This document shows, piece after piece, positions 17,782-31,602 of a stretch of 53,688 nt of DNA. Within the stretch, counting starts at the first letter, position 1, and each line of letters starts with the position of its first letter. The notes beneath the pieces were generated by a model. The model worked only from the letters and a program-made list of their open reading frames with translations, made no database searches and was not told the DNA's origin. Source of the stretch: Patescibacteria group bacterium (GTDB taxonomy: Bacteria > Patescibacteriota > Minisyncoccia > Phycocordibacterales > JACZSL01); contig JACZSL010000004.1 of NCBI GenBank assembly GCA_022574205.1, positions 1 through 53,688 of the forward strand, read 5' to 3'. The translations under genes and the position numbers were made by a program.

Positions 17782-17854
17782 CCGCCCATAGCTCAGTTGG
17801 TAGAGCAGCGGCCTCTTAAGCCGACGGTCGTAGGTTCGAATCCTACTGGGCGGA
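17782..17854 (+). tRNA. tRNA-Lys(CTT)
   Basis: Cloverleaf; loop ct-CTT-aa; GTTCGAATCC. Confidence 0.93.
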
Positions 17855-17920
17855 CAGCTGGCCGGAAAAATTATGCCCATAGCGAAAGTGGTGGAGATTA
17901 GCAGTGCTGGGAGCACTTAT

Positions 17921-18005
17921 GCCGGGGTGGTGAAATTGGTAGACACGTGTGGTTTAGGACCACATGCCGCAAGGCGTGGAGGTTCAAGTCCTCTCCCCGG
18001 CACCA
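17921..18005 (+). tRNA. tRNA-Leu(TAG)
   Basis: Cloverleaf with variable arm, tt-TAG-ga, encoded CCA. Confidence 0.95.
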
Positions 18006-18043
18006 CACCAAAAATACCTGACAAAAGTCAGGTATTTTTGGTG
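18005..18043. terminator. Terminator after tRNA-Leu
   Basis: acaccaaaaatacctgac-aaaa-gtcaggtatttttggtgt. Confidence 0.75.
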
Positions 18044-18073
18044 TCTCTCTTCAGGGGTTTGAAGGGCAGAGTT

Positions 18074-19234
18074 TTATCCAAATGTAAATGCGAAGGCAGA
18101 CACACCGCCTTCAAGAAAACGAATCTCAAGCAAGTGTTCGCCATACTGTCCCTTAAGATCAATTAAATTGTATAGATCGTGTCCCTCAAACAACACTGTT
18201 CCGTCCTTTACATCCGAACCAGCACTCATTGAGTCAACAAGTTTGCCATCAATATAAATTTCCGCTCGTGAGGCGTCTTTCGCTCCAGCGACCAGATTCA
18301 CTTTGCTTGCGGAAAATTGAATAAATATTGACCCACCAATGCTTTCAAGAGATGTCTTCTCTGGTTTCGTATTCCACGTGCCTCTAAGCGAATAGGTATT
18401 TAAACGTAGAGTTAGAGATGAGTCATGATTAAATTCACATGCAGAGCTTAGACAGCTTTGCTGCGGTAAGTTGCTCAAATATTGAATACGCGAAGAGCCA
18501 AGATATATTTCCAGCGTCTTTACACCACCCGCCTTCACAATATCAACATTCTCCGGAAGACCTTCTTTTTTCGATATTACATCCTCACCCGCTCGTGCCT
18601 TGAGTTCGTTTAGCGCGCTAACGATACGTGCCTCCGTTTCAGCATACCCACCTTCTCCAATGTGGTCATAAACTATAAAGCCATCAGCGTCGATTAAATA
18701 TTTTCTCGGCCAATATCTATTGCGATACGCGTTCCACGTAGAGTAATCGTTATCAAGCACAACTGGATATGTAACACCCCATTTCTCCACCGCACGCGAA
18801 ACGTTTGCGTAATCCTTTTCAAATTCAAATTCAGGAGTGTGAAGGCCTATTATTACCAAACCCTCATCCGCATATTTTTTGTGCCACGATACAAGATACG
18901 GTAAAGTCCTCTGGCAGTTGATGCAGGAGTACGTCCAAAAATCTATAAGAATTACTTTATTGCCAATGAGATCCGCAATGTTAATGCCGTCTTGCACTCC
19001 GTCACCGTCGAAGTCAGTGTTGATAAAACCATCTGGACTTGAAATTTCCTTTGCACTCTCATATATTTTTGCCTTTTCCTTTTTCGGCATTGTGTTTAAT
19101 TCAATATTAATATCTTGAAGTATTCCTTCCGTTGGTTTTATACGATCCGGCTTTCTCATCTCTAAAACAACAATTGCTCCAACCACGAATAGCATGATAA
19201 CAAAACCAACAGTTTTTCTATATGTCTCGCTCAT
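18074..19234 (-). CDS. DipZ-like membrane-anchored redoxin
   Basis: DFWTYSCINCQRT, HTPEF.FE, N.YWP, C-terminal AFTFG. Confidence 0.88.
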   Translation of the reverse strand: MSETYRKTVGFVIMLFVVGAIVVLEMRKPDRIKPTEGILQDINIELNTMPKKEKAKIYESAKEISSPDGFINTDFDGDGVQDGINIADLIGNKVILIDFWTYSCINCQRTLPYLVSWHKKYADEGLVIIGLHTPEFEFEKDYANVSRAVEKWGVTYPVVLDNDYSTWNAYRNRYWPRKYLIDADGFIVYDHIGEGGYAETEARIVSALNELKARAGEDVISKKEGLPENVDIVKAGGVKTLEIYLGSSRIQYLSNLPQQSCLSSACEFNHDSSLTLRLNTYSLRGTWNTKPEKTSLESIGGSIFIQFSASKVNLVAGAKDASRAEIYIDGKLVDSMSAGSDVKDGTVLFEGHDLYNLIDLKGQYGEHLLEIRFLEGGVSAFAFTFG

Positions 19235-22563: not shown

Positions 22564-22749
22564 CATTTGTGCCCGGGGCGGGAGTCGGCCCAAGTCACTA
22601 ATTCGCTTCGCTCATAAGTGCTTGCGGCCCCGGCTCGCTATTGTAGAGCGATATGCTCCGCCTTTCGACTCCCGACGAAAGCAAAGCAGTTTGCTTTCTC
22701 CCCGGACTAAAAACACAATATTCGATGCACCAAAGTGCACCGAATATTG
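22564..22749 (-). mobile_element. tRNA-Leu(TAA) 3'-anchored mini-element
   Basis: 24-bp perfect copy of the tRNA 3' end (22564-22587 = 22750-22773) plus an antisense copy at 22664-22707. Confidence 0.7.
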
Positions 22750-22755
22750 CATTTG

Positions 22756-22837
22756 TGCCCGGGGCGGGAGTCGAACCCGCATGTCTTGCGACACAAAATT
22801 TTAAGTCTTGCGTGTATACCAATTCCACCACCCGGGC
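22756..22837 (-). tRNA. tRNA-Leu(TAA)
   Basis: Cloverleaf, ct-TAA-aa, variable arm. Confidence 0.93.
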
Positions 22838-22845
22838 GTATTATT

Positions 22846-23025
22846 AGGGGAATCGACCTCCAAGTCACTAAATATATTATTTCACTACGCTCATAATCTA
22901 TTAAGTACTCGTGGGCTCGGCTCGGCGCTTAATCGTCCCAAGGACACGAGCCTGTGCCTGTTCGATTCCCACTCTGCTTCTTACAGAACACATAGCCATA
23001 GAAAACAGGGCGATGTGTTCTGTTG
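22846..23025 (-). mobile_element. tRNA-Cys 3'-anchored mini-element
   Basis: Direct T-arm copy 22847-22856, antisense copy 22961-22980, inner motifs shared with the Leu element. Confidence 0.6.
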
Positions 23026-23097
23026 AGGCCTGAGGGGGAATCGAACCCCCGCATGGAGGATTTGCAGTCCTCAGTGTTACCACTTCACCATCAGGCC
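23026..23097 (-). tRNA. tRNA-Cys(GCA)
   Basis: Cloverleaf, ct-GCA-aa. Confidence 0.93.
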
Positions 23098-23104
23098 TAT
23101 TCAT

Positions 23105-23222
23105 CCCGTTAGAGATAGTCCGCCTCAGGCGGACGTTGATTAACTACTGATAATAAATATACACATATCTTTTTTTGTCTTTTGCTTGATTTGGTATACA
23201 TAACTGTTTAATCTTTAACGGG
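23105..23222 (-). mobile_element. CCCG-hairpin element at the rbfA 3' end
   Basis: Ends cccgttagagat/atctttaacggg; perfect flanking direct repeat attcat (23099-23104, 23223-23228); REP hairpin inside at 23118-23134. Confidence 0.8.
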
Positions 23223-23547: not shown

Positions 23548-25098
23548 TTACATTTTAACGTGGACAAACCCCACGAGTTCATCACCCTCTGAAACATCGA
23601 CAGATGATTGTATTTCAGCGCCAAACTCGTTGCCCTCCACGACAACTTTTGTAGCAGTTTTTTGTATTTGAAGACTTGTTACTTTTCCCATACCTATTAG
23701 AGACGCACTTCGCAGAATTTTTACTTGTTCACCAAGTTTTAACGAACCCTCTGTCACACTACCACCAATGATTGACTTATCCTTTGTTCGACTAAATTTC
23801 TTTAAGACTTTAACTTTTCCAGTAGTTTCCTCAACATCGATTTTTGGAGTACGTGACTTAATAGCCGCAAGAAGCCACTCTGCAAGCTCATAAATAATCG
23901 TAAATGTCTTAATTTCGATACCTAGGCGCTCTGCCATCTCCTTTGCACGAGCGTCAACGCTGACATTAAAGCCTACAACAATCGTGTTTTTGTTTCCCCC
24001 GGCAGTCTTAATGTCACCCTCGCTTATTGTACCGACACCACTCAATACAATTTTTACATCAACACGCTCGGTGTCAATCTTTTGAATCTCATGTTGTATT
24101 GCTTCAATTGTTCCGGAGACATCAGTCTTTATAATGACCGGAATTGTCACTTTTCCATCTTCAACATCTTCGTTGTCACCATGGCTACGTGGAGCTTTTT
24201 TCGAAATTTTATAAGCGAGAACGGCAGCCTCGGCTTCTTTCTTTGTGTCAAATGCGGCAAAAGTGGAGCCAGCACTTGGCACATCGCTAAACCCGATGAC
24301 GCGAGCCGGAGTTCCTAATTTGGCCTCCTTAATGCTTTTACCCTGGAAATCTTCCATAATCCGAACTGGTGCAATACATTCTCCAACAACAACACTCTGC
24401 CCACTTTTCAACGTACCATCTTTTATTACAAGTGTTGCTGAGATTCCTTTTCTAGGTTCAACGTGAGATTCAACAACAACACCCTCTGCATTTTTACTTG
24501 GGTCTCCTGTAAGTTCTTCAAGGTCGGTCGCAAGGAGTAAAAGGTCAAGGAGCTCCTTCACACCTTCACCAGTCTTTGCGGAAATAGTTGCATATGGTAC
24601 GCTACCGCCCATTCCTTCAAGATAGATTTCGTTTTCAACGAGACTACTCTTTGTTCGTTCAATGTCAGCGCCAGGTAGATCAATTTTATTTATTGCAACA
24701 ATATAAGGAAGGTTGGCATTTTCGATTGACTTTAGCGCTTCGATCGTTTGAGTTTTTACACCGTCCTCTGCAGACACGATAAGGATTGCGATGTCAGCGG
24801 CTTGTACCCCCCGCAAACGCATACCAGCAAACGCTTCATGTCCCGGAGTATCAAGAAATGTTATTTTACGCACCTTTCCATCTTCCCCAATATGTTCAAC
24901 TTCATATGAAGAAATGTGCTGAGTGATGCCGCCCACCTCACGCTCAACCACATTTGTCTTTCGGATATAATCAAGAAGTTTTGATTTACCGTGATCTATA
25001 TGACCCATCACAGCCACAACCGGCTGACGCACCACAAGAACCCCAGTACTCGCTGGTTTTGTATCTCGAATCGAATTGTTCGCGTGTGTTTTTGTCAT
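23548..25098 (-). CDS. infB: Translation initiation factor IF-2 (short form without long N-terminus)
   Basis: GHIDHGKS, GGITQHI, DTPGHEAF, NKID. Confidence 0.95.
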   Translation of the reverse strand: MTKTHANNSIRDTKPASTGVLVVRQPVVAVMGHIDHGKSKLLDYIRKTNVVEREVGGITQHISSYEVEHIGEDGKVRKITFLDTPGHEAFAGMRLRGVQAADIAILIVSAEDGVKTQTIEALKSIENANLPYIVAINKIDLPGADIERTKSSLVENEIYLEGMGGSVPYATISAKTGEGVKELLDLLLLATDLEELTGDPSKNAEGVVVESHVEPRKGISATLVIKDGTLKSGQSVVVGECIAPVRIMEDFQGKSIKEAKLGTPARVIGFSDVPSAGSTFAAFDTKKEAEAAVLAYKISKKAPRSHGDNEDVEDGKVTIPVIIKTDVSGTIEAIQHEIQKIDTERVDVKIVLSGVGTISEGDIKTAGGNKNTIVVGFNVSVDARAKEMAERLGIEIKTFTIIYELAEWLLAAIKSRTPKIDVEETTGKVKVLKKFSRTKDKSIIGGSVTEGSLKLGEQVKILRSASLIGMGKVTSLQIQKTATKVVVEGNEFGAEIQSSVDVSEGDELVGFVHVKM

Positions 25099-25258
25099 AA
25101 GAGTAAGCAAACGCTCGTAACAGAGCGGAGTGTGTCTTTTGATTATTGGTCATTTCACTATGTGTGTGAATTGGTTTGGATTATACATTGAAATCACATT
25201 TTTGCAAAAACATTTTTTGGTATAATATGAACATAATAACTTTAGCTATCCGTAGTGT

Positions 25259-27642: not shown

Positions 27643-30339
27643 ATGACACCATTCGGAAATTTTACAACAAAAGCAAAAGAAGCAGTTCGCAAAGCACACG
27701 AACTGGCTATTGAACGTGGACAAAACCATGTTAATCCAGTTCATTTGCTAGCCGCTCTAGTACTCCAAGATGAGAGTGCAGTATTTTCCATACTAGAACG
27801 ACTTGAAGTTGACACTGTTTTACTTACAGACTCGCTTCTTGAGGCAATTGAAGCCACAGACAGTTCTTCGGTATTATCGTCATCATACCAATTGTATTTG
27901 ACGCCAGAACTTGCACATATTTTTGAAACAAGCGGAAAAATCGCAACGAGCCTCAACAATTCATTTGTTTCAACCGAACATCTCTTCTTGGCTACATTTG
28001 ATCAGCCGGGACAAGCACGTGAGATTCTAAATCGTTTTAGACTAGATCGAGACCGCATCCTGCAGCTTTTGAAAGAACAGCAGGGAAGTCAGATTACTGA
28101 CGTCAGTCAACCCCAAAAATATCGTTTTATTTCGAAGTATACAAGAAGTCTTACGCAACTTTCCCGTGAAAATAAACTTGATCCAGTTATAGGCCGAGAT
28201 TTTGAAATTAGTCGCGTCATACAAATTTTAAGCCGCCGCACAAAGAACAATCCAATCCTCATCGGAGAAGCTGGGGTAGGAAAGACAGCAATTGCAGAGG
28301 GTTTAGCGCAGAAAATGGCGACTTCAGATGTCCCAGAGAGCCTTAAAGAAAAAGAGCTTGTATCACTAGATCTCGGGCTTTTAATAGCAGGAACAAAATA
28401 TCGCGGTGAATTTGAGGAACGCTTGAAAAATATTATGAAAGAGATCGAACGTTCCGAAGGGAAAATAATTCTATTTATCGATGAAATTCACACTATTGTT
28501 GGGGCAGGCGCGGCTGAAGGAGCAATGGATGCCTCAAATATGTTAAAGCCCGCGCTTTCAACGGGTGACCTTCGTGTCATTGGCGCCACAACACTTAAGG
28601 AGTATCAGAAGCACATTGAGAGAGATCCAGCACTCACACGACGTTTCCAACCAGTTCATGTTCTTGAACCGTCACTTGAAGATGCAATAGCAATTCTTCG
28701 CGGACTTAAAGAAAAGTATGAAATTTTCCATGGCGTGCACATAACGGACGACGCCAATATTGCGGCAGTTAATCTAAGCTCTCGCTACATAACCGATAGA
28801 TTTTTGCCGGACAAAGCAATTGACCTTATAGATGAATCAGCTTCAGCTCTTCGTATATCTTTAGAGAACAAGCCGCCAATACTTGAAGACGCACACAGGA
28901 AAATAGTACGCCTCGAAATAGAAAAACACGCACTTGCGAAAGACGCGGAAAATAAAGACAATAAAAGCGCTAGAGCTCGTATTAAAAAAATTGATAAAGA
29001 AATCGCCGATCTTCGAGAAAAAACCTCAGAGTTAGAACTAAAATGGAAAAATGAGAAAGATACTTTAGCTTCAATAAAAAAAATTAAAAAAGAACTTGAA
29101 ACACGGCGTATTGAGGCTGAGGCGGCTGAAGCTACTGCAGATCTTGTTAAGGCCGCGGAAATTCGGTATGCATCTATACCAAATCTTGAAAAGGAACTTA
29201 AGGTAAAAACAAGACGATTAAAGAAACTTCAGAGTTCGAGGCGGATTTTGAAAGAAGAGATCACTGAAGAAGATATTGCTGACATCGTATCACGTTGGAC
29301 CAGTATTCCCGTGACGCGCATGATTGAGGAGGAGGCAGAAAAACTTTCACGTATGGAAGAGGAACTCAGAAAACGACTTGTAGGTCAAGATGAATCGATA
29401 AAACTCGTCTCTGACGCTGTAAAACGCTCCAGAGTAGGTATTGCAGACCCAAATAGACCAATTGGCTCGTTCTTGTTTCTTGGTCCGTCTGGAGTGGGAA
29501 AGACCGAACTTACAAAAGCGCTTGCAGAATTTATGTTTGACGACGAGAAGGCACTAATCCGTGTCGATATGAGTGAATATATGGAAAAGCACGCCGTGTC
29601 AAAAATCATCGGTGCGCCTCCTGGATATGTTGGATACGAAGAGGGTGGAAGCCTTACCGAAACAATTCGTCACAGGCCGTATTCCGTTGTTCTTTTTGAT
29701 GAAATTGAAAAAGCACATCCCGAAGTCTTTAATATTCTTCTACAGGTCCTAGACAATGGGCATTTAACTGATGCTAAAGGAAGAGTTGTGAACTTCAAAA
29801 ACACTATCATAATTTTGACCTCAAACATCGGTTCAGAACACATTTCTAAAATGGAAAGGATGGGGTTTGCGACGGCCAACGAAGACAAACATAAGTACGA
29901 AATTGCCAAAGAAAAAGTACTCGATAGATTAAAAGAACGTTTCCGACCAGAATTCCTAAACCGACTCGACGAGACAATTATATTCAACATTCTTTCACCA
30001 AGTGCGATTAGGAAAATAGTTGATCTTCAAATTCAACAGGTGAAGGAGAGGCTTCTCGCAAAAGAGATTGAGCTGAACATTTCGCCAAAGGCACTAGAAC
30101 ATCTTGCCAAAATCGGGTACGAGCCTAAGTTTGGCGCTCGTCCATTAAAGCGGAGTATTCAAAATAAGATTCTCACTCCAGTTGCGTCGTTAATGATTTT
30201 AAATGGTATGATGGCTGGTGGAAAAGTGGATATTGATATCAAGGGAGGAGAGTTTATTTTTGATGTCAAAAAGAAAGCTGCTCGAAAAAAGACAAAAAAA
30301 GCGAAAGCTTCAAGGAAAAAAGAAAAGGTGTTAGCATAA
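27643..30339 (+). CDS. clpB: ATP-dependent chaperone ClpB
   Basis: Clp N domain, two Walker A motifs (GEAGVGKT, GPSGVGKT), long middle coiled coil, GARPL. Confidence 0.92.
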   Translation: MTPFGNFTTKAKEAVRKAHELAIERGQNHVNPVHLLAALVLQDESAVFSILERLEVDTVLLTDSLLEAIEATDSSSVLSSSYQLYLTPELAHIFETSGKIATSLNNSFVSTEHLFLATFDQPGQAREILNRFRLDRDRILQLLKEQQGSQITDVSQPQKYRFISKYTRSLTQLSRENKLDPVIGRDFEISRVIQILSRRTKNNPILIGEAGVGKTAIAEGLAQKMATSDVPESLKEKELVSLDLGLLIAGTKYRGEFEERLKNIMKEIERSEGKIILFIDEIHTIVGAGAAEGAMDASNMLKPALSTGDLRVIGATTLKEYQKHIERDPALTRRFQPVHVLEPSLEDAIAILRGLKEKYEIFHGVHITDDANIAAVNLSSRYITDRFLPDKAIDLIDESASALRISLENKPPILEDAHRKIVRLEIEKHALAKDAENKDNKSARARIKKIDKEIADLREKTSELELKWKNEKDTLASIKKIKKELETRRIEAEAAEATADLVKAAEIRYASIPNLEKELKVKTRRLKKLQSSRRILKEEITEEDIADIVSRWTSIPVTRMIEEEAEKLSRMEEELRKRLVGQDESIKLVSDAVKRSRVGIADPNRPIGSFLFLGPSGVGKTELTKALAEFMFDDEKALIRVDMSEYMEKHAVSKIIGAPPGYVGYEEGGSLTETIRHRPYSVVLFDEIEKAHPEVFNILLQVLDNGHLTDAKGRVVNFKNTIIILTSNIGSEHISKMERMGFATANEDKHKYEIAKEKVLDRLKERFRPEFLNRLDETIIFNILSPSAIRKIVDLQIQQVKERLLAKEIELNISPKALEHLAKIGYEPKFGARPLKRSIQNKILTPVASLMILNGMMAGGKVDIDIKGGEFIFDVKKKAARKKTKKAKASRKKEKVLA

Positions 30340-30432: not shown

Positions 30433-30515
30433 GCGTCGGTACTCAAGCGGTCAACGAGGACGGACTGTAAATCCGTTGAACATGTTCTACGCAGGTTCGA
30501 ATCCTGCCCGGCGCA
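30433..30515 (+). tRNA. tRNA-Tyr(GTA)
   Basis: Cloverleaf, ct-GTA-aa, variable arm. Confidence 0.93.
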
Positions 30516-30517
30516 CA

Positions 30518-30900
30518 GCTTGGTCAAAAACAACCCGAATGGGTTGTTTTTGTTACCAGCTGTAGTGTTCGGCAGGATTCGAAAAGCTTTTGAGATAGAT
30601 TTGAGTCGAAGACGAAAATATATCCAAAAGGTGAGACGCGATTTTATGAGCGTCGCAAGGCTCATTGAGGGCTTTTATGAAGCGGCGAAATAAAAGACCC
30701 AATGAGTGGACAGCCTCTGTAAGAGGTACTGCTCCTGTAATGAGAGAAATTCTTACCCGACGCACATAGACAAAAAACTTTAGCTTTCCGCTAAAGTTTT
30801 TTGCTCTATATGCCTATGCAGGATTCGAATACACTTAGCAAATTACTGCGATATATCGCAGTAATTTGATTTGGTGAAGGGTGACCGAATCCTACCCCCG
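30518..30900 (+). mobile_element. Two tandem tRNA-Tyr 3'-anchored mini-elements
   Basis: Antisense T-arm copies 30571-30583 and 30818-30829; degenerate direct copies 30748-30766 and 30886-30897; each unit starts with a terminator-like hairpin. Confidence 0.6.
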
Positions 30901-30949
30901 TGGATAACTGTTCCAAAGAGCATTTCTTAGTTACAATAAGGATATGAAT

Positions 30950-31152
30950 CCCGTTAGAGATAGTTAATAGTTACGTATGATCTCAACGAACAAAATAAGT
31001 AAAATAAGTAAATGTACACCAAAGATAAAAAATAACTTACGGAAACGCCCCAATAGGCACAACACCCAGGTCGATGAAAAGATTTTTAGAAAATAATAAA
31101 CTTGGAGATGCTATTTTAACTTCGTTATTTGGCGTTTCCTATCTCTAACGGG
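30950..31152 (+). mobile_element. CCCG-hairpin element at the pilin start, with a nested 99-bp GGAAACGCC element
   Basis: 14/14 inverted ends cccgttagagatag/ctatctctaacggg; ATGAAT on both sides; inner inverted repeat 31041-31139. Confidence 0.85.
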
Positions 31153-31602
31153 ATGAATATTTTTTCAACATATCGAAACTTTTTAAGCTTAGGCGGCATC
31201 CTTGCCACATTTGTTGTTCTCGTTATGTTTTTGATGCCATTTGTTGGACTTGCGCAAGATATTCCAGGCCTAGACACAACAATTGTTCCATCGTGCGAGC
31301 ACCCAGACACACCAGGATGTAATTTTTGTGATCTAGTACAACTAAGTCAAAATATAATCAATTTCTTAGTCGGTTTTGCAATCTTTGTCGCTGTGCTTCT
31401 TTTCGTATATGCCGGCTTCCTTTATCTTTCTGCTGGTGCTAACGAAGAGAATGTAAAAAGGGCACACAAGCTCTTTGGGTCAGTCTTTATTGGATTTATT
31501 CTCGTCCTTGCATCGTGGCTTATTATCGACACGATTATGAAAGCTTTTGTAGGCGACAATCCAAGCTTTGGTCCATGGAATAACCTTGGATGCGGCGGTT
31601 GA
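31153..31602 (+). CDS. CPR-type pilin (TrbC/VirB2-like)
   Basis: Signal/TM, C...C..CD motif, two TM with YAGF.Y..A, G...VL..WLI. Confidence 0.7.
   Translation: MNIFSTYRNFLSLGGILATFVVLVMFLMPFVGLAQDIPGLDTTIVPSCEHPDTPGCNFCDLVQLSQNIINFLVGFAIFVAVLLFVYAGFLYLSAGANEENVKRAHKLFGSVFIGFILVLASWLIIDTIMKAFVGDNPSFGPWNNLGCGG

Follow-up and report, generated by a model that had tools for sequence, protein, structure and literature searches.

Prophages, genomic islands and elements of the ICE and IME types use the T-loop sublocation of tRNA and tmRNA genes as an insertion site; CIMEs are integrase-less remnants of such elements. Folded single strands serve as recombination sites in the integron attC site and in the attP(+) hairpin of CTX phage, the latter being used by the host XerCD. 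Small non-autonomous bacterial repeats include MITEs, REPINs moved by RAYT and PATEs derived from IS200/IS605, and in fungal mitochondria mobile endonuclease ORFs in the 3′ end of a gene bring with them a recoded copy of that gene end. Here we describe small units located behind tRNA genes in a 53,688-nt stretch of DNA (the window; contig JACZSL010000004.1, positions 1 to 53,688) from a Patescibacteria group bacterium, whose genome (the source genome, G000) comprises 650 kb on 23 contigs with 41% G+C and is 94% complete. The family to which the Cys, Leu and Gln units belong, R1, is a large family of small insertion cassettes that is absent from Rfam.

The tRNA genes were placed by ARAGORN and Rfam, and the coordinates of the re-copied tRNA-Cys end were read by hand against the sequence. 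A unit runs from the tRNA end starting at C56 (S) through a hairpin (H), an antisense arm (S′) and a core of about 100 nt (K) to a distal direct copy that again starts at C56 (S2). The units are about 105-190 nt long and contain no ORF. Two R1-family units lie within positions 22564-23025, one for Cys and one for Leu(TAA), so that reading the minus strand from 23097 to 22564 gives tRNA-Cys, the Cys unit, 9 nt, tRNA-Leu(TAA) and the Leu unit. Behind tRNA-Cys (23025-23097), whose 3′ part from C56 to the discriminator (S, 23026-23043) is the segment that is re-copied, a long hairpin of 41 nt (H, 22983-23023) follows directly, with no T-run behind it; the first 60 nt downstream of the tRNA fold at -19.8 kcal/mol in RNAfold. 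The antisense arm (S′, 22961-22976) is the complement of tRNA-Cys over its T-loop, the 3′ strand of its T-stem and some of its acceptor strand, and forms the 5′ strand of helix P1 of the R1 fold. The structured core (K, 22857-22960) holds helices P2, P3, P1a and P4, and the R1 covariance model matched this unit at 22838-22980 with 115 bits. Its distal copy (S2, 22847-22856) reproduces the T-loop and T-stem 3′ strand of tRNA-Cys over only 10 nt, and tRNA-Leu(TAA) starts 9 nt after it.

The Leu unit, on the same minus strand, is bounded by a 24-nt exact repeat. The proximal copy (S, 22750-22773) consists of tRNA-Leu(TAA) (22755-22837) from C56 together with six flanking bases, and the distal copy (S2, 22564-22587) reproduces the tRNA 3′ end with the same six bases. 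A perfect hairpin followed by a T-run (H, 22709-22749; RNAfold -25.3 kcal/mol) resembles a terminator. The antisense arm (S′, 22664-22706) is in two pieces, an acceptor part at 22700-22706 and a T-stem/T-loop part at 22664-22676, split by an extra hairpin, P0 (22677-22698); the same split was seen in two metagenome loci, L091 and L125. The core (K, 22588-22663) is of a short-P4 subtype, and the R1 match (22569-22684) scored 91.2 bits. The Leu unit has a fold z-score of -2.51. When the DNA of this locus was compared with that of four relatives, only the tRNAs and the cores matched, the rest being too diverged. Short Logan contigs, which break at repeats, contained joints 22700>23023 (X2, X7 and X10) and 22831>23025 (X20, with a shorter side of 21 nt), which relatives or repeats may explain. 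In one X2 Logan contig the match broke off precisely at the outer edge of the Leu unit (22563). These contigs yielded no usable sign of empty alleles or of RNA ends and levels.

The Tyr and Gln loci, both on the plus strand, are laid out in the same way. Behind tRNA-Tyr (30433-30516) two units stand in tandem. Tyr unit 1 (30522-30766) has a hairpin (30522-30557) and an antisense arm (30567-30583), followed by its core (30584-30746) and by a distal copy that has decayed (30747-30766). Its core belongs to another family: the R1 model gave no match to it, nhmmer found few relatives of the unit, and the start of the core recurs in loci L072 and L074. Loci L086, L119 and L059 also represent core families other than R1. 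In Tyr unit 2 (30769-30904) a hairpin (30769-30806) and an antisense arm (30813-30829) precede an R1 core reduced to its 3′ half (30830-30885), and the distal copy (30886-30904) has decayed; the unit was found by nhmmer (30809-30914) and was not reported by searches with the R1 covariance model. The locus of tRNA-Gln (51886-51960) holds one full unit, a stray tRNA-end copy and a truncated second unit. The whole unit (52103-52310) begins with the stray, nearly full copy of the tRNA-Gln end (52103-52123) and continues with a hairpin (52134-52158), an antisense arm (52174-52190), an R1 core (52191-52300; R1 match 52170-52319, 113.4 bits) and a short distal copy (52301-52310). The start of the second unit, in which hairpin and antisense arm are repeated, lies at 52311-52362 (nhmmer match 52322-52363). 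Reading of the sequence thus bore out the layout that the preliminary description had proposed for all four loci, namely Leu(TAA), Cys, Tyr and Gln. Its statement that the core motifs are shared held for the Cys, Leu and Gln units and gave way at Tyr, where unit 1 has a different core and unit 2 only the 3′ half.

Iterated nhmmer recovered 19 copies in the source genome, and the R1 covariance model, built from a 16-sequence alignment, recovered 17 at E≤0.1, which makes the shared core a genuine family. From the 16 copies RNAalifold derived 29 pairs, of which 26 show compensatory changes, among them the covariation of cactta/tagtg with tgctta/tagca already pointed out in the preliminary description. 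In this structure S′ and the beginning of S2 form the closing stem P1, on which the helix P1a, of two pairs, is stacked; a side arm (P2-P3) and a long arm (P4) complete it. The 9 pairs of P1 are formed in 86.9% of cells among 95 distinct copies. In an alignment fitted to the R1 model, 97 independent copies from other genomes had 92.7% of cells paired, a level reached in none of 500 shuffles (69.9% after shuffling), and sliding the partners reduced pairing to 31-45%. G.U pairs outnumbered A.C mismatches by 193 to 63 among 4561 paired cells, and G.U favours the tRNA strand, which argues that the fold is selected on that strand, as RNA or as single-stranded DNA. At Rfam gathering thresholds only tRNA passed in the window and no family was found for the core; at E≤5, across five loci, the core still had no match, with no known ribozyme or guide-RNA family among the hits. 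Together with literature searches, in whose result listings no description of such an element was found, this agrees with the earlier view that the layout is not a standard catalogued pattern.

R1 was present in 51 of the 61 genomes, each from a different family, that were sampled in this order (0-24 copies per genome), and the 10 genomes without it were mostly 92-100% complete. With stricter filters it was found in 7 of 151 genomes drawn evenly across the phylum, the source genome included. The exact core motif occurred in more than 118 contigs of species-representative genomes, whose titles name Parcubacteria- or Paceibacteria-type lineages or 'Saccharibacteria', with five titled Elusimicrobia. 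It had no match in 2.9 million viral contigs, and hence no phage parent in that collection at the level of the exact motif. The junction sequences of R1 are conserved across distant lineages; H, on the left of the unit, shows no sequence conservation. The nearest neighbour of a core (n = 118) came from the same genome 3 times and from the same tRNA of another genome 6 times, and lay elsewhere in the remaining 109. As the cores cluster neither by genome nor by tRNA type, they give no sign of vertical tRNA-specific lineages or of recent within-genome bursts. No near-identical copies were found at different tRNAs of one genome, the identical pairs being tandem duplicates.

In a pooled set of 169 R1 copies, 132 lay at most 450 nt downstream of a tRNA or tmRNA gene of the same strand, most commonly with 43-48 nt between the tRNA end and the R1 match. 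The other 37 were mostly tandem second units, lay at contig ends or carried a tRNA-like S2 without a called tRNA. The hosts span nearly all amino-acid types plus three tmRNAs, and in the source genome about 15 of 38 tRNAs carry a unit. The host tRNAs are intact, scoring 55-73 bits with Rfam. The junction is fixed, GTGAC being followed directly by C56, at which the repeat always begins. Its right edge lies 0-11 nt past the tRNA, except in five longer repeats (38-60 nt) found in tandem arrays, and an exact repeat from C56 through the discriminator was present in 47 of 118 adjacent copies. Repeat length ranges from 18 to 29 nt at tRNAs and is about 75 nt at topA (see below). H carried a T-run in 3 of 14 units with another tRNA behind them and in 61 of 104 others (Fisher p = 0.011, which overstates the case as the loci are related), a pattern that fits read-through of internal units.

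The preliminary description had held both copies to be matched to their own tRNA. For the direct copy this was upheld: over 13 tRNA-specific bases S2 matched its own tRNA at a pooled mean of 9.16 positions and others at 5.11, and against the 38 tRNAs of the source genome its own ranked first in 12 of 14 elements. The antisense arm, whose end is always the complement of T54-T55 and lies two bases past the position at which S2 begins, gave a mixed picture. Its pooled mean over 13 tRNA-specific bases was higher for its own tRNA (7.15) than for others (4.76). Much of it, however, is a generic T-loop complement, and beyond that part its own tRNA ranked first among the 38 in only 5 of 14 elements, the ranks in the window being 4 for Cys, 2 for Gln and 3 for Leu, with ties. 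Fewer than 5% of other tRNAs reached the score of the own tRNA in 45 of 118 elements. Whether S′ follows the proximal or the distal copy was likewise mixed (258 against 164 positions, by an ungapped and noisy method). In units with a long S′, the segment S-H-S′ is a nearly perfect palindrome of 90 nt. An intact S2 was retained in 1 of 13 long-S′ copies and in 55 of 105 short-S′ copies, with an overall rank correlation close to zero.

Orthologous sites were compared through the flanking gene at 23548-25110 on the minus strand, which resembles infB in its GTP-binding motif and which recovered 80 metagenome loci. Conservation of the gene order Cys, Leu(TAA), Lys(CTT), Leu(TAG) is widespread in these loci. 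In 43 loci tRNA-Cys and tRNA-Leu(TAA) are adjacent. A plain AT-rich spacer of 4-63 nt without a hairpin separates the two genes in 24 of these, and spacers of 158-351 nt were found in 14 (13 by eye), in which H, S′ and a core lead up to the old Cys end and a spacer like the ancestral one. Six of these long-spacer loci carry an R1 core and the others different cores with the same junction rules. Since H is present only in the filled loci, it belongs to the insert. Sites that are empty in some relatives and filled in others establish that the units are insertions, and the small integrase-free elements with host-matched ends proposed at the outset are thus indeed found. Larger inserts occur at the same kind of site: in L138 an island of 6.6 kb lies between a tRNA end and two tandem R1 units, and the start of its 597-aa ORF resembles that of a serine recombinase. 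Orphan units whose matching tRNA end lies kilobases upstream were considered as a long-form element and rejected as such, the interval being due to later insertions between tRNA and unit, namely the island in L138, IS3-like ORFs in L151 and possibly a further case in L133.

One source-genome R1 unit is located at topA (C2:51290-51431). Its P1 arms match topA codons about 75 nt before the stop instead of a T-loop, which extends the match between element ends and host gene to a protein-coding target. The new and the old topA ends encode the same 20 residues, yet 15 of the 20 codons differ, all 15 synonymously. The site is filled at the same point in the source genome and in G002, where the repeat is of 62 nt and differs at 2 positions, and is empty in G001, a genome of the same family. 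Divergence that is synonymous only would be very unlikely under neutral decay, and suggests that both ends diverged as working gene ends in different lineages, one of them having been imported. Later allelic exchange, and not the insertion itself, could explain this pattern.

Searches for a partner enzyme covered the 94%-complete source genome. RVT_1 had no match there, which speaks against the RT-derived origin entertained in the preliminary description, and neither TnpB (PF07282), Nop/Tas (PF01798), a serine recombinase or resolvase nor rve was found. A RuvC-like match to the IS110 model was sub-threshold. The only tyrosine recombinase is Xer-like and lies outside the units, and the best score with an integron-integrase model was 103.5 bits against a cut-off of 265. 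One RAYT-like Y1 protein is encoded, and Y1_Tnp was considered as the mobiliser; it was rejected as it is not co-distributed with R1, being present in 35 of 51 R1-positive and 4 of 10 R1-negative genomes and not found in 16 of the 51, including complete genomes with 10-16 copies. No excised, circular or ORF-bearing form of R1 was seen in searches of the genome, of viral contigs and of the pooled copies. Stray 5′ motifs in the source genome, considered as split copies, proved to be chance matches inside genes or 23S rRNA.

Based on these observations, we propose that R1 units are ORF-less integrative mini-cassettes acted on in trans, a reading to which we would give an even chance of being correct. 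The units lodge between T55 and C56 of tRNA and tmRNA genes, and once in the source genome in the last 26 codons of topA, in such a way that the host gene is kept intact and a second copy of the gene end stands behind the insert, as with T-loop-integrating islands. The insert consists of H, ending in a terminator-like T-run mostly where no further tRNA follows, of K, predicted to fold into a three-way junction on the tRNA strand, and of the closing stem P1, formed by S′ and the first 7-10 bases of S2; because of this pairing, P1 would amount to a folded double-stranded copy of the crossover site. We suggest that a small, folded and probably single-stranded intermediate is joined to the target by a trans-acting or host enzyme, by analogy with attC in integrons or with the attP hairpin in CTX phage. 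Once in a lineage, a cassette may spread by ordinary homologous recombination of imported DNA, which would explain the synonymous-only difference between the topA ends. The long S-H-S′ palindromes may arise later, through template switching that perfects quasi-palindromes as the distal copy decays. Several points weigh against this proposal. No enzyme is tied to the elements in the source genome, the arms come in more than 20 different sequences, too many for ready recognition by one tyrosine recombinase, and the conserved sequence and G.U-bearing, RNA-type fold are no less expected of a working RNA than of a DNA site. As near-identical copies at different tRNAs of one genome were not found, the data also stop short of recent transposition.

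The same fold could instead belong to a module of use to the host, such as the cis RNA modulating tRNA maturation that the preliminary description entertained, although we consider this unlikely. The unit would then be a co-transcribed trailer that ends or insulates tRNA transcription or aids processing, or a mimic of the acceptor/T-arm read by RNase P, the 3′-end processing machinery, the CCA-adding enzyme or possibly a synthetase, with the repeated tRNA end as a working part. Compensatory changes, the G.U preference for the tRNA strand and junction sequences kept across distant lineages all agree with such an RNA. So does the fact that units between two tRNA genes, such as the Cys unit, must be transcribed through, with T-runs rarer in internal units; in the P0 subtype, moreover, the split S′ and S2 together give helices resembling the acceptor and the T-stem, with a hairpin at the side. 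Presence or absence between relatives argues against an essential role, however: 10 of the 61 genomes of the order have no copy, only some 15 of the 38 source-genome tRNAs carry a unit and most orthologous tRNA-Cys sites are empty. Distal copies also decay freely in many units, the same core stands behind the protein gene topA, and tandem and truncated units occur. A role for the fold in targeting, as in the guide-like or target-programmed element of the preliminary description, is distinctly unlikely in our view, in the form of an RNA-guided or ribozyme element whose P1 arms would pair with the target strands or the tRNA transcript, and in which K itself or an effector would cut or join between T55 and C56. 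The reach of S′ to T54 and T55, past the start of S2, would place the junction inside the arm-target duplex and at a three-way junction with invariant purines, the arms vary with the target, topA included, and core subtypes are common to different tRNAs and genomes. Against it stand the missing match to any known ribozyme or guide RNA even at E≤5, and a source genome without RT, TnpB, Nop/Tas, serine recombinase or rve and with only the sub-threshold RuvC-like match to IS110. Where S2 is intact, moreover, S′ mostly matches only the generic T-loop and T-stem, and both arms cover the same target positions, unlike the neighbouring half-sites of known dual guides as described in PMC12045711.

We regard as unlikely, too, a programmable integration module without an enzyme of its own, in which the opened P1 arms would pair with both target strands at a gene end. 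A junction resolvase, Xer, RecA or K itself would join the folded strand between T55 and C56, and the arms would be re-copied by template switching, so that one core could colonise any tRNA, tmRNA or conserved gene end. Transposition of the MITE type by a transposase in trans, for example the RAYT-like Y1 protein of the source genome, with the repeated tRNA end as a long target-site duplication, appears highly improbable. Young-looking units do have identical repeats that extend a few bases past the tRNA, and their S′ matches only the generic part. The repeat nevertheless varies in length (18-29 nt, and about 75 nt at topA), H at the left end of the unit is not sequence-conserved, 15 synonymous changes between the topA repeats are unlike a duplication, and Y1_Tnp was missing from those 16 of 51 R1-positive genomes. 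Least probable of all is that the units are scars of integrase-borne islands or phages, that is attL and attR left by an interior deletion as cis-mobilisable remnants, with K as an attP arm. Integration at tRNA and tmRNA genes classically leaves direct repeats that extend from T-loop to tRNA end, and in L138 a site of this kind is occupied by a real island whose ORF is recombinase-like. Hundreds of copies share one compact size and fold, however, and double-stranded arms bound by protein would not be expected to show covariation and a G.U bias. Among the 169 copies there was no full-length parent in which K stands beside an integrase, and the core motif was absent from the 2.9 million viral contigs.

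Compared with the described systems, R1 resembles the integrative elements of tRNA genes in that it targets the 3′ parts of tRNA and tmRNA genes and leaves the gene intact, in that its repeat spans the T-loop to just past the gene end, and in that insertions stack at one tRNA (L138). It differs from them in its small size, in carrying neither an integrase nor any other ORF, in adding an antisense copy of the crossover region, in its conserved, covarying single-strand fold and in the use of more than 20 different targets by one family. As in attC and the CTX site, sense and antisense copies in one strand fold into a duplex of the target, structure and not sequence is conserved in the arms, and the cassette holds no recombinase, the single tyrosine recombinase of the source genome being Xer-like. 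Unlike those sites, R1 has no R′/R″ core boxes visible by eye, the source genome has no integron integrase by the score given above, and the targets are gene ends and not attI or dif, with arms that change with the target. With MITEs, REPINs and PATEs R1 shares a short, ORF-less and strongly folded form that is multi-copy and patchy between relatives. It departs from all three in its long, variable repeat, which is the host gene's own end, and in its strict placement behind tRNA genes. Terminal inverted repeats of fixed sequence and short target-site duplications of fixed length, as in MITEs, are absent, and R1 is not co-distributed with Y1 (HUH) transposases, unlike REPINs and PATEs. The topA end, present twice in copies that differ only synonymously, recalls the mitochondrial endonuclease ORFs, but R1 has no endonuclease gene, tRNA ends cannot be recoded and the proximal tRNA site is intact. 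Retroelements (SINE-like elements, retrons, group II introns) differ in view of the absence of RVT_1 from the source genome and of any Rfam match to the core. TIGR-Tas, as described in PMC12045711, is built differently, and the source genome has no Nop-domain Tas. TnpB-type guide RNAs are likewise set apart, the source genome having no TnpB.

With 17 R1 copies and further core families in 650 kb, these units account for an appreciable part of the non-coding DNA in ultra-small genomes. Whether they prove to be mobile DNA or working RNA, tRNA annotation, and island and prophage finders that use repeated tRNA ends, misread such loci. If mobile, they would rank among the smallest site-specific integrative elements known. 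One fold that serves more than 20 targets through target-matched arms follows the logic of programmable insertion systems, and identifying the joining activity might therefore lead to a novel recombination mechanism or tool. Should K prove to be a working RNA instead, the units would represent an abundant, uncatalogued class of RNA tied to tRNA genes in bacteria of the candidate phyla radiation.

The cassettes of R1, the covariance-model family of ORF-less folded insertions found mostly behind tRNA and tmRNA genes, were also encountered in a protein-coding gene. In the source genome (G000), the last 26 codons of topA host an R1 unit (contig C2:51253-51445, corresponding to positions 244-540 of the extracted locus L012). 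Comparison of the new and old gene ends showed that 15 of 20 codons differ, every difference being synonymous. The same insertion point is occupied in the genome G002 and empty in the genome G001.

R1 units were also noted at two other G000 loci. At C7:3715-3958, ARAGORN called two overlapping 'tRNA-Pro(GGG)' genes beside tRNA-Thr(TGT), and the 3' end was found to be identical in all three; they resemble tandemly repeated 84-nt copies of the 3' part of tRNA-Thr, with an R1 unit behind them. The second locus is an orphan unit (C5:26963-27105, locus L002) with only a decayed tRNA end upstream, whose distal direct copy corresponds to the 3' end of tRNA-Ser(GGA), a gene located on a different contig (C3). 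The antisense arm of this unit bears a closer resemblance to tRNA-Ser(TGA).

Behind five G000 tRNAs, a hairpin is followed by a segment resembling a T-loop complement, with no match to R1: tRNA-Asp (C22:6439), tRNA-Arg-TCT (C4:36980), tRNA-Trp (C2:60799), tRNA-Ala (C14:1428) and tRNA-Leu-TAG (window 18006-18070). These loci may represent additional core families or decayed units. In a single RNA run, high-depth contigs span the end of tRNA-Leu(TAG) and 220 nt downstream (17967-18225), as well as the start (27736-28550) of an 898-aa ORF (27643-30339) which by eye looks like ClpB; as only contigs were available, this coverage is uninformative on levels. Around tRNA-Lys(CTT) (17789-17896), read joints and inserted letters were observed that fit 42-nt tandem pseudo-starts. 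Elsewhere in the window, a motif of about 20 nt (cccgttagagatag...) is repeated at 23104-23121, 30946-30965 and, as the reverse complement, 31139-31159. Two inverted copies of this motif, which probably belongs to a MITE-like family, enclose about 180 nt past the two units behind tRNA-Tyr (30522..30766 and 30769..30904, both on the forward strand).

Larger insertions were found between tRNA and R1 unit in two of the pooled loci. In L138, across the whole of an 8-kb locus on a contig titled Saccharibacteria, a 6.6-kb island separates the end of the tRNA, itself partly masked, from two identical tandem R1 units. The island encodes a 597-aa ORF, the start of which looks, from a motif, like a serine recombinase. 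In L151 (1189-3891), ORFs that by eye look like IS3-family transposases lie between tRNA-Ser(TGA) and the R1 unit, and the distal copy of this unit matches tRNA-Ser(TGA) at 18/18 positions.

Lastly, R1 units with intact distal copies are present in five contigs titled Elusimicrobia (L155, L177, L180, L192 and L195). Because these units have a G+C content of 64-81%, they appear to be adapted to that host rather than recently transferred.
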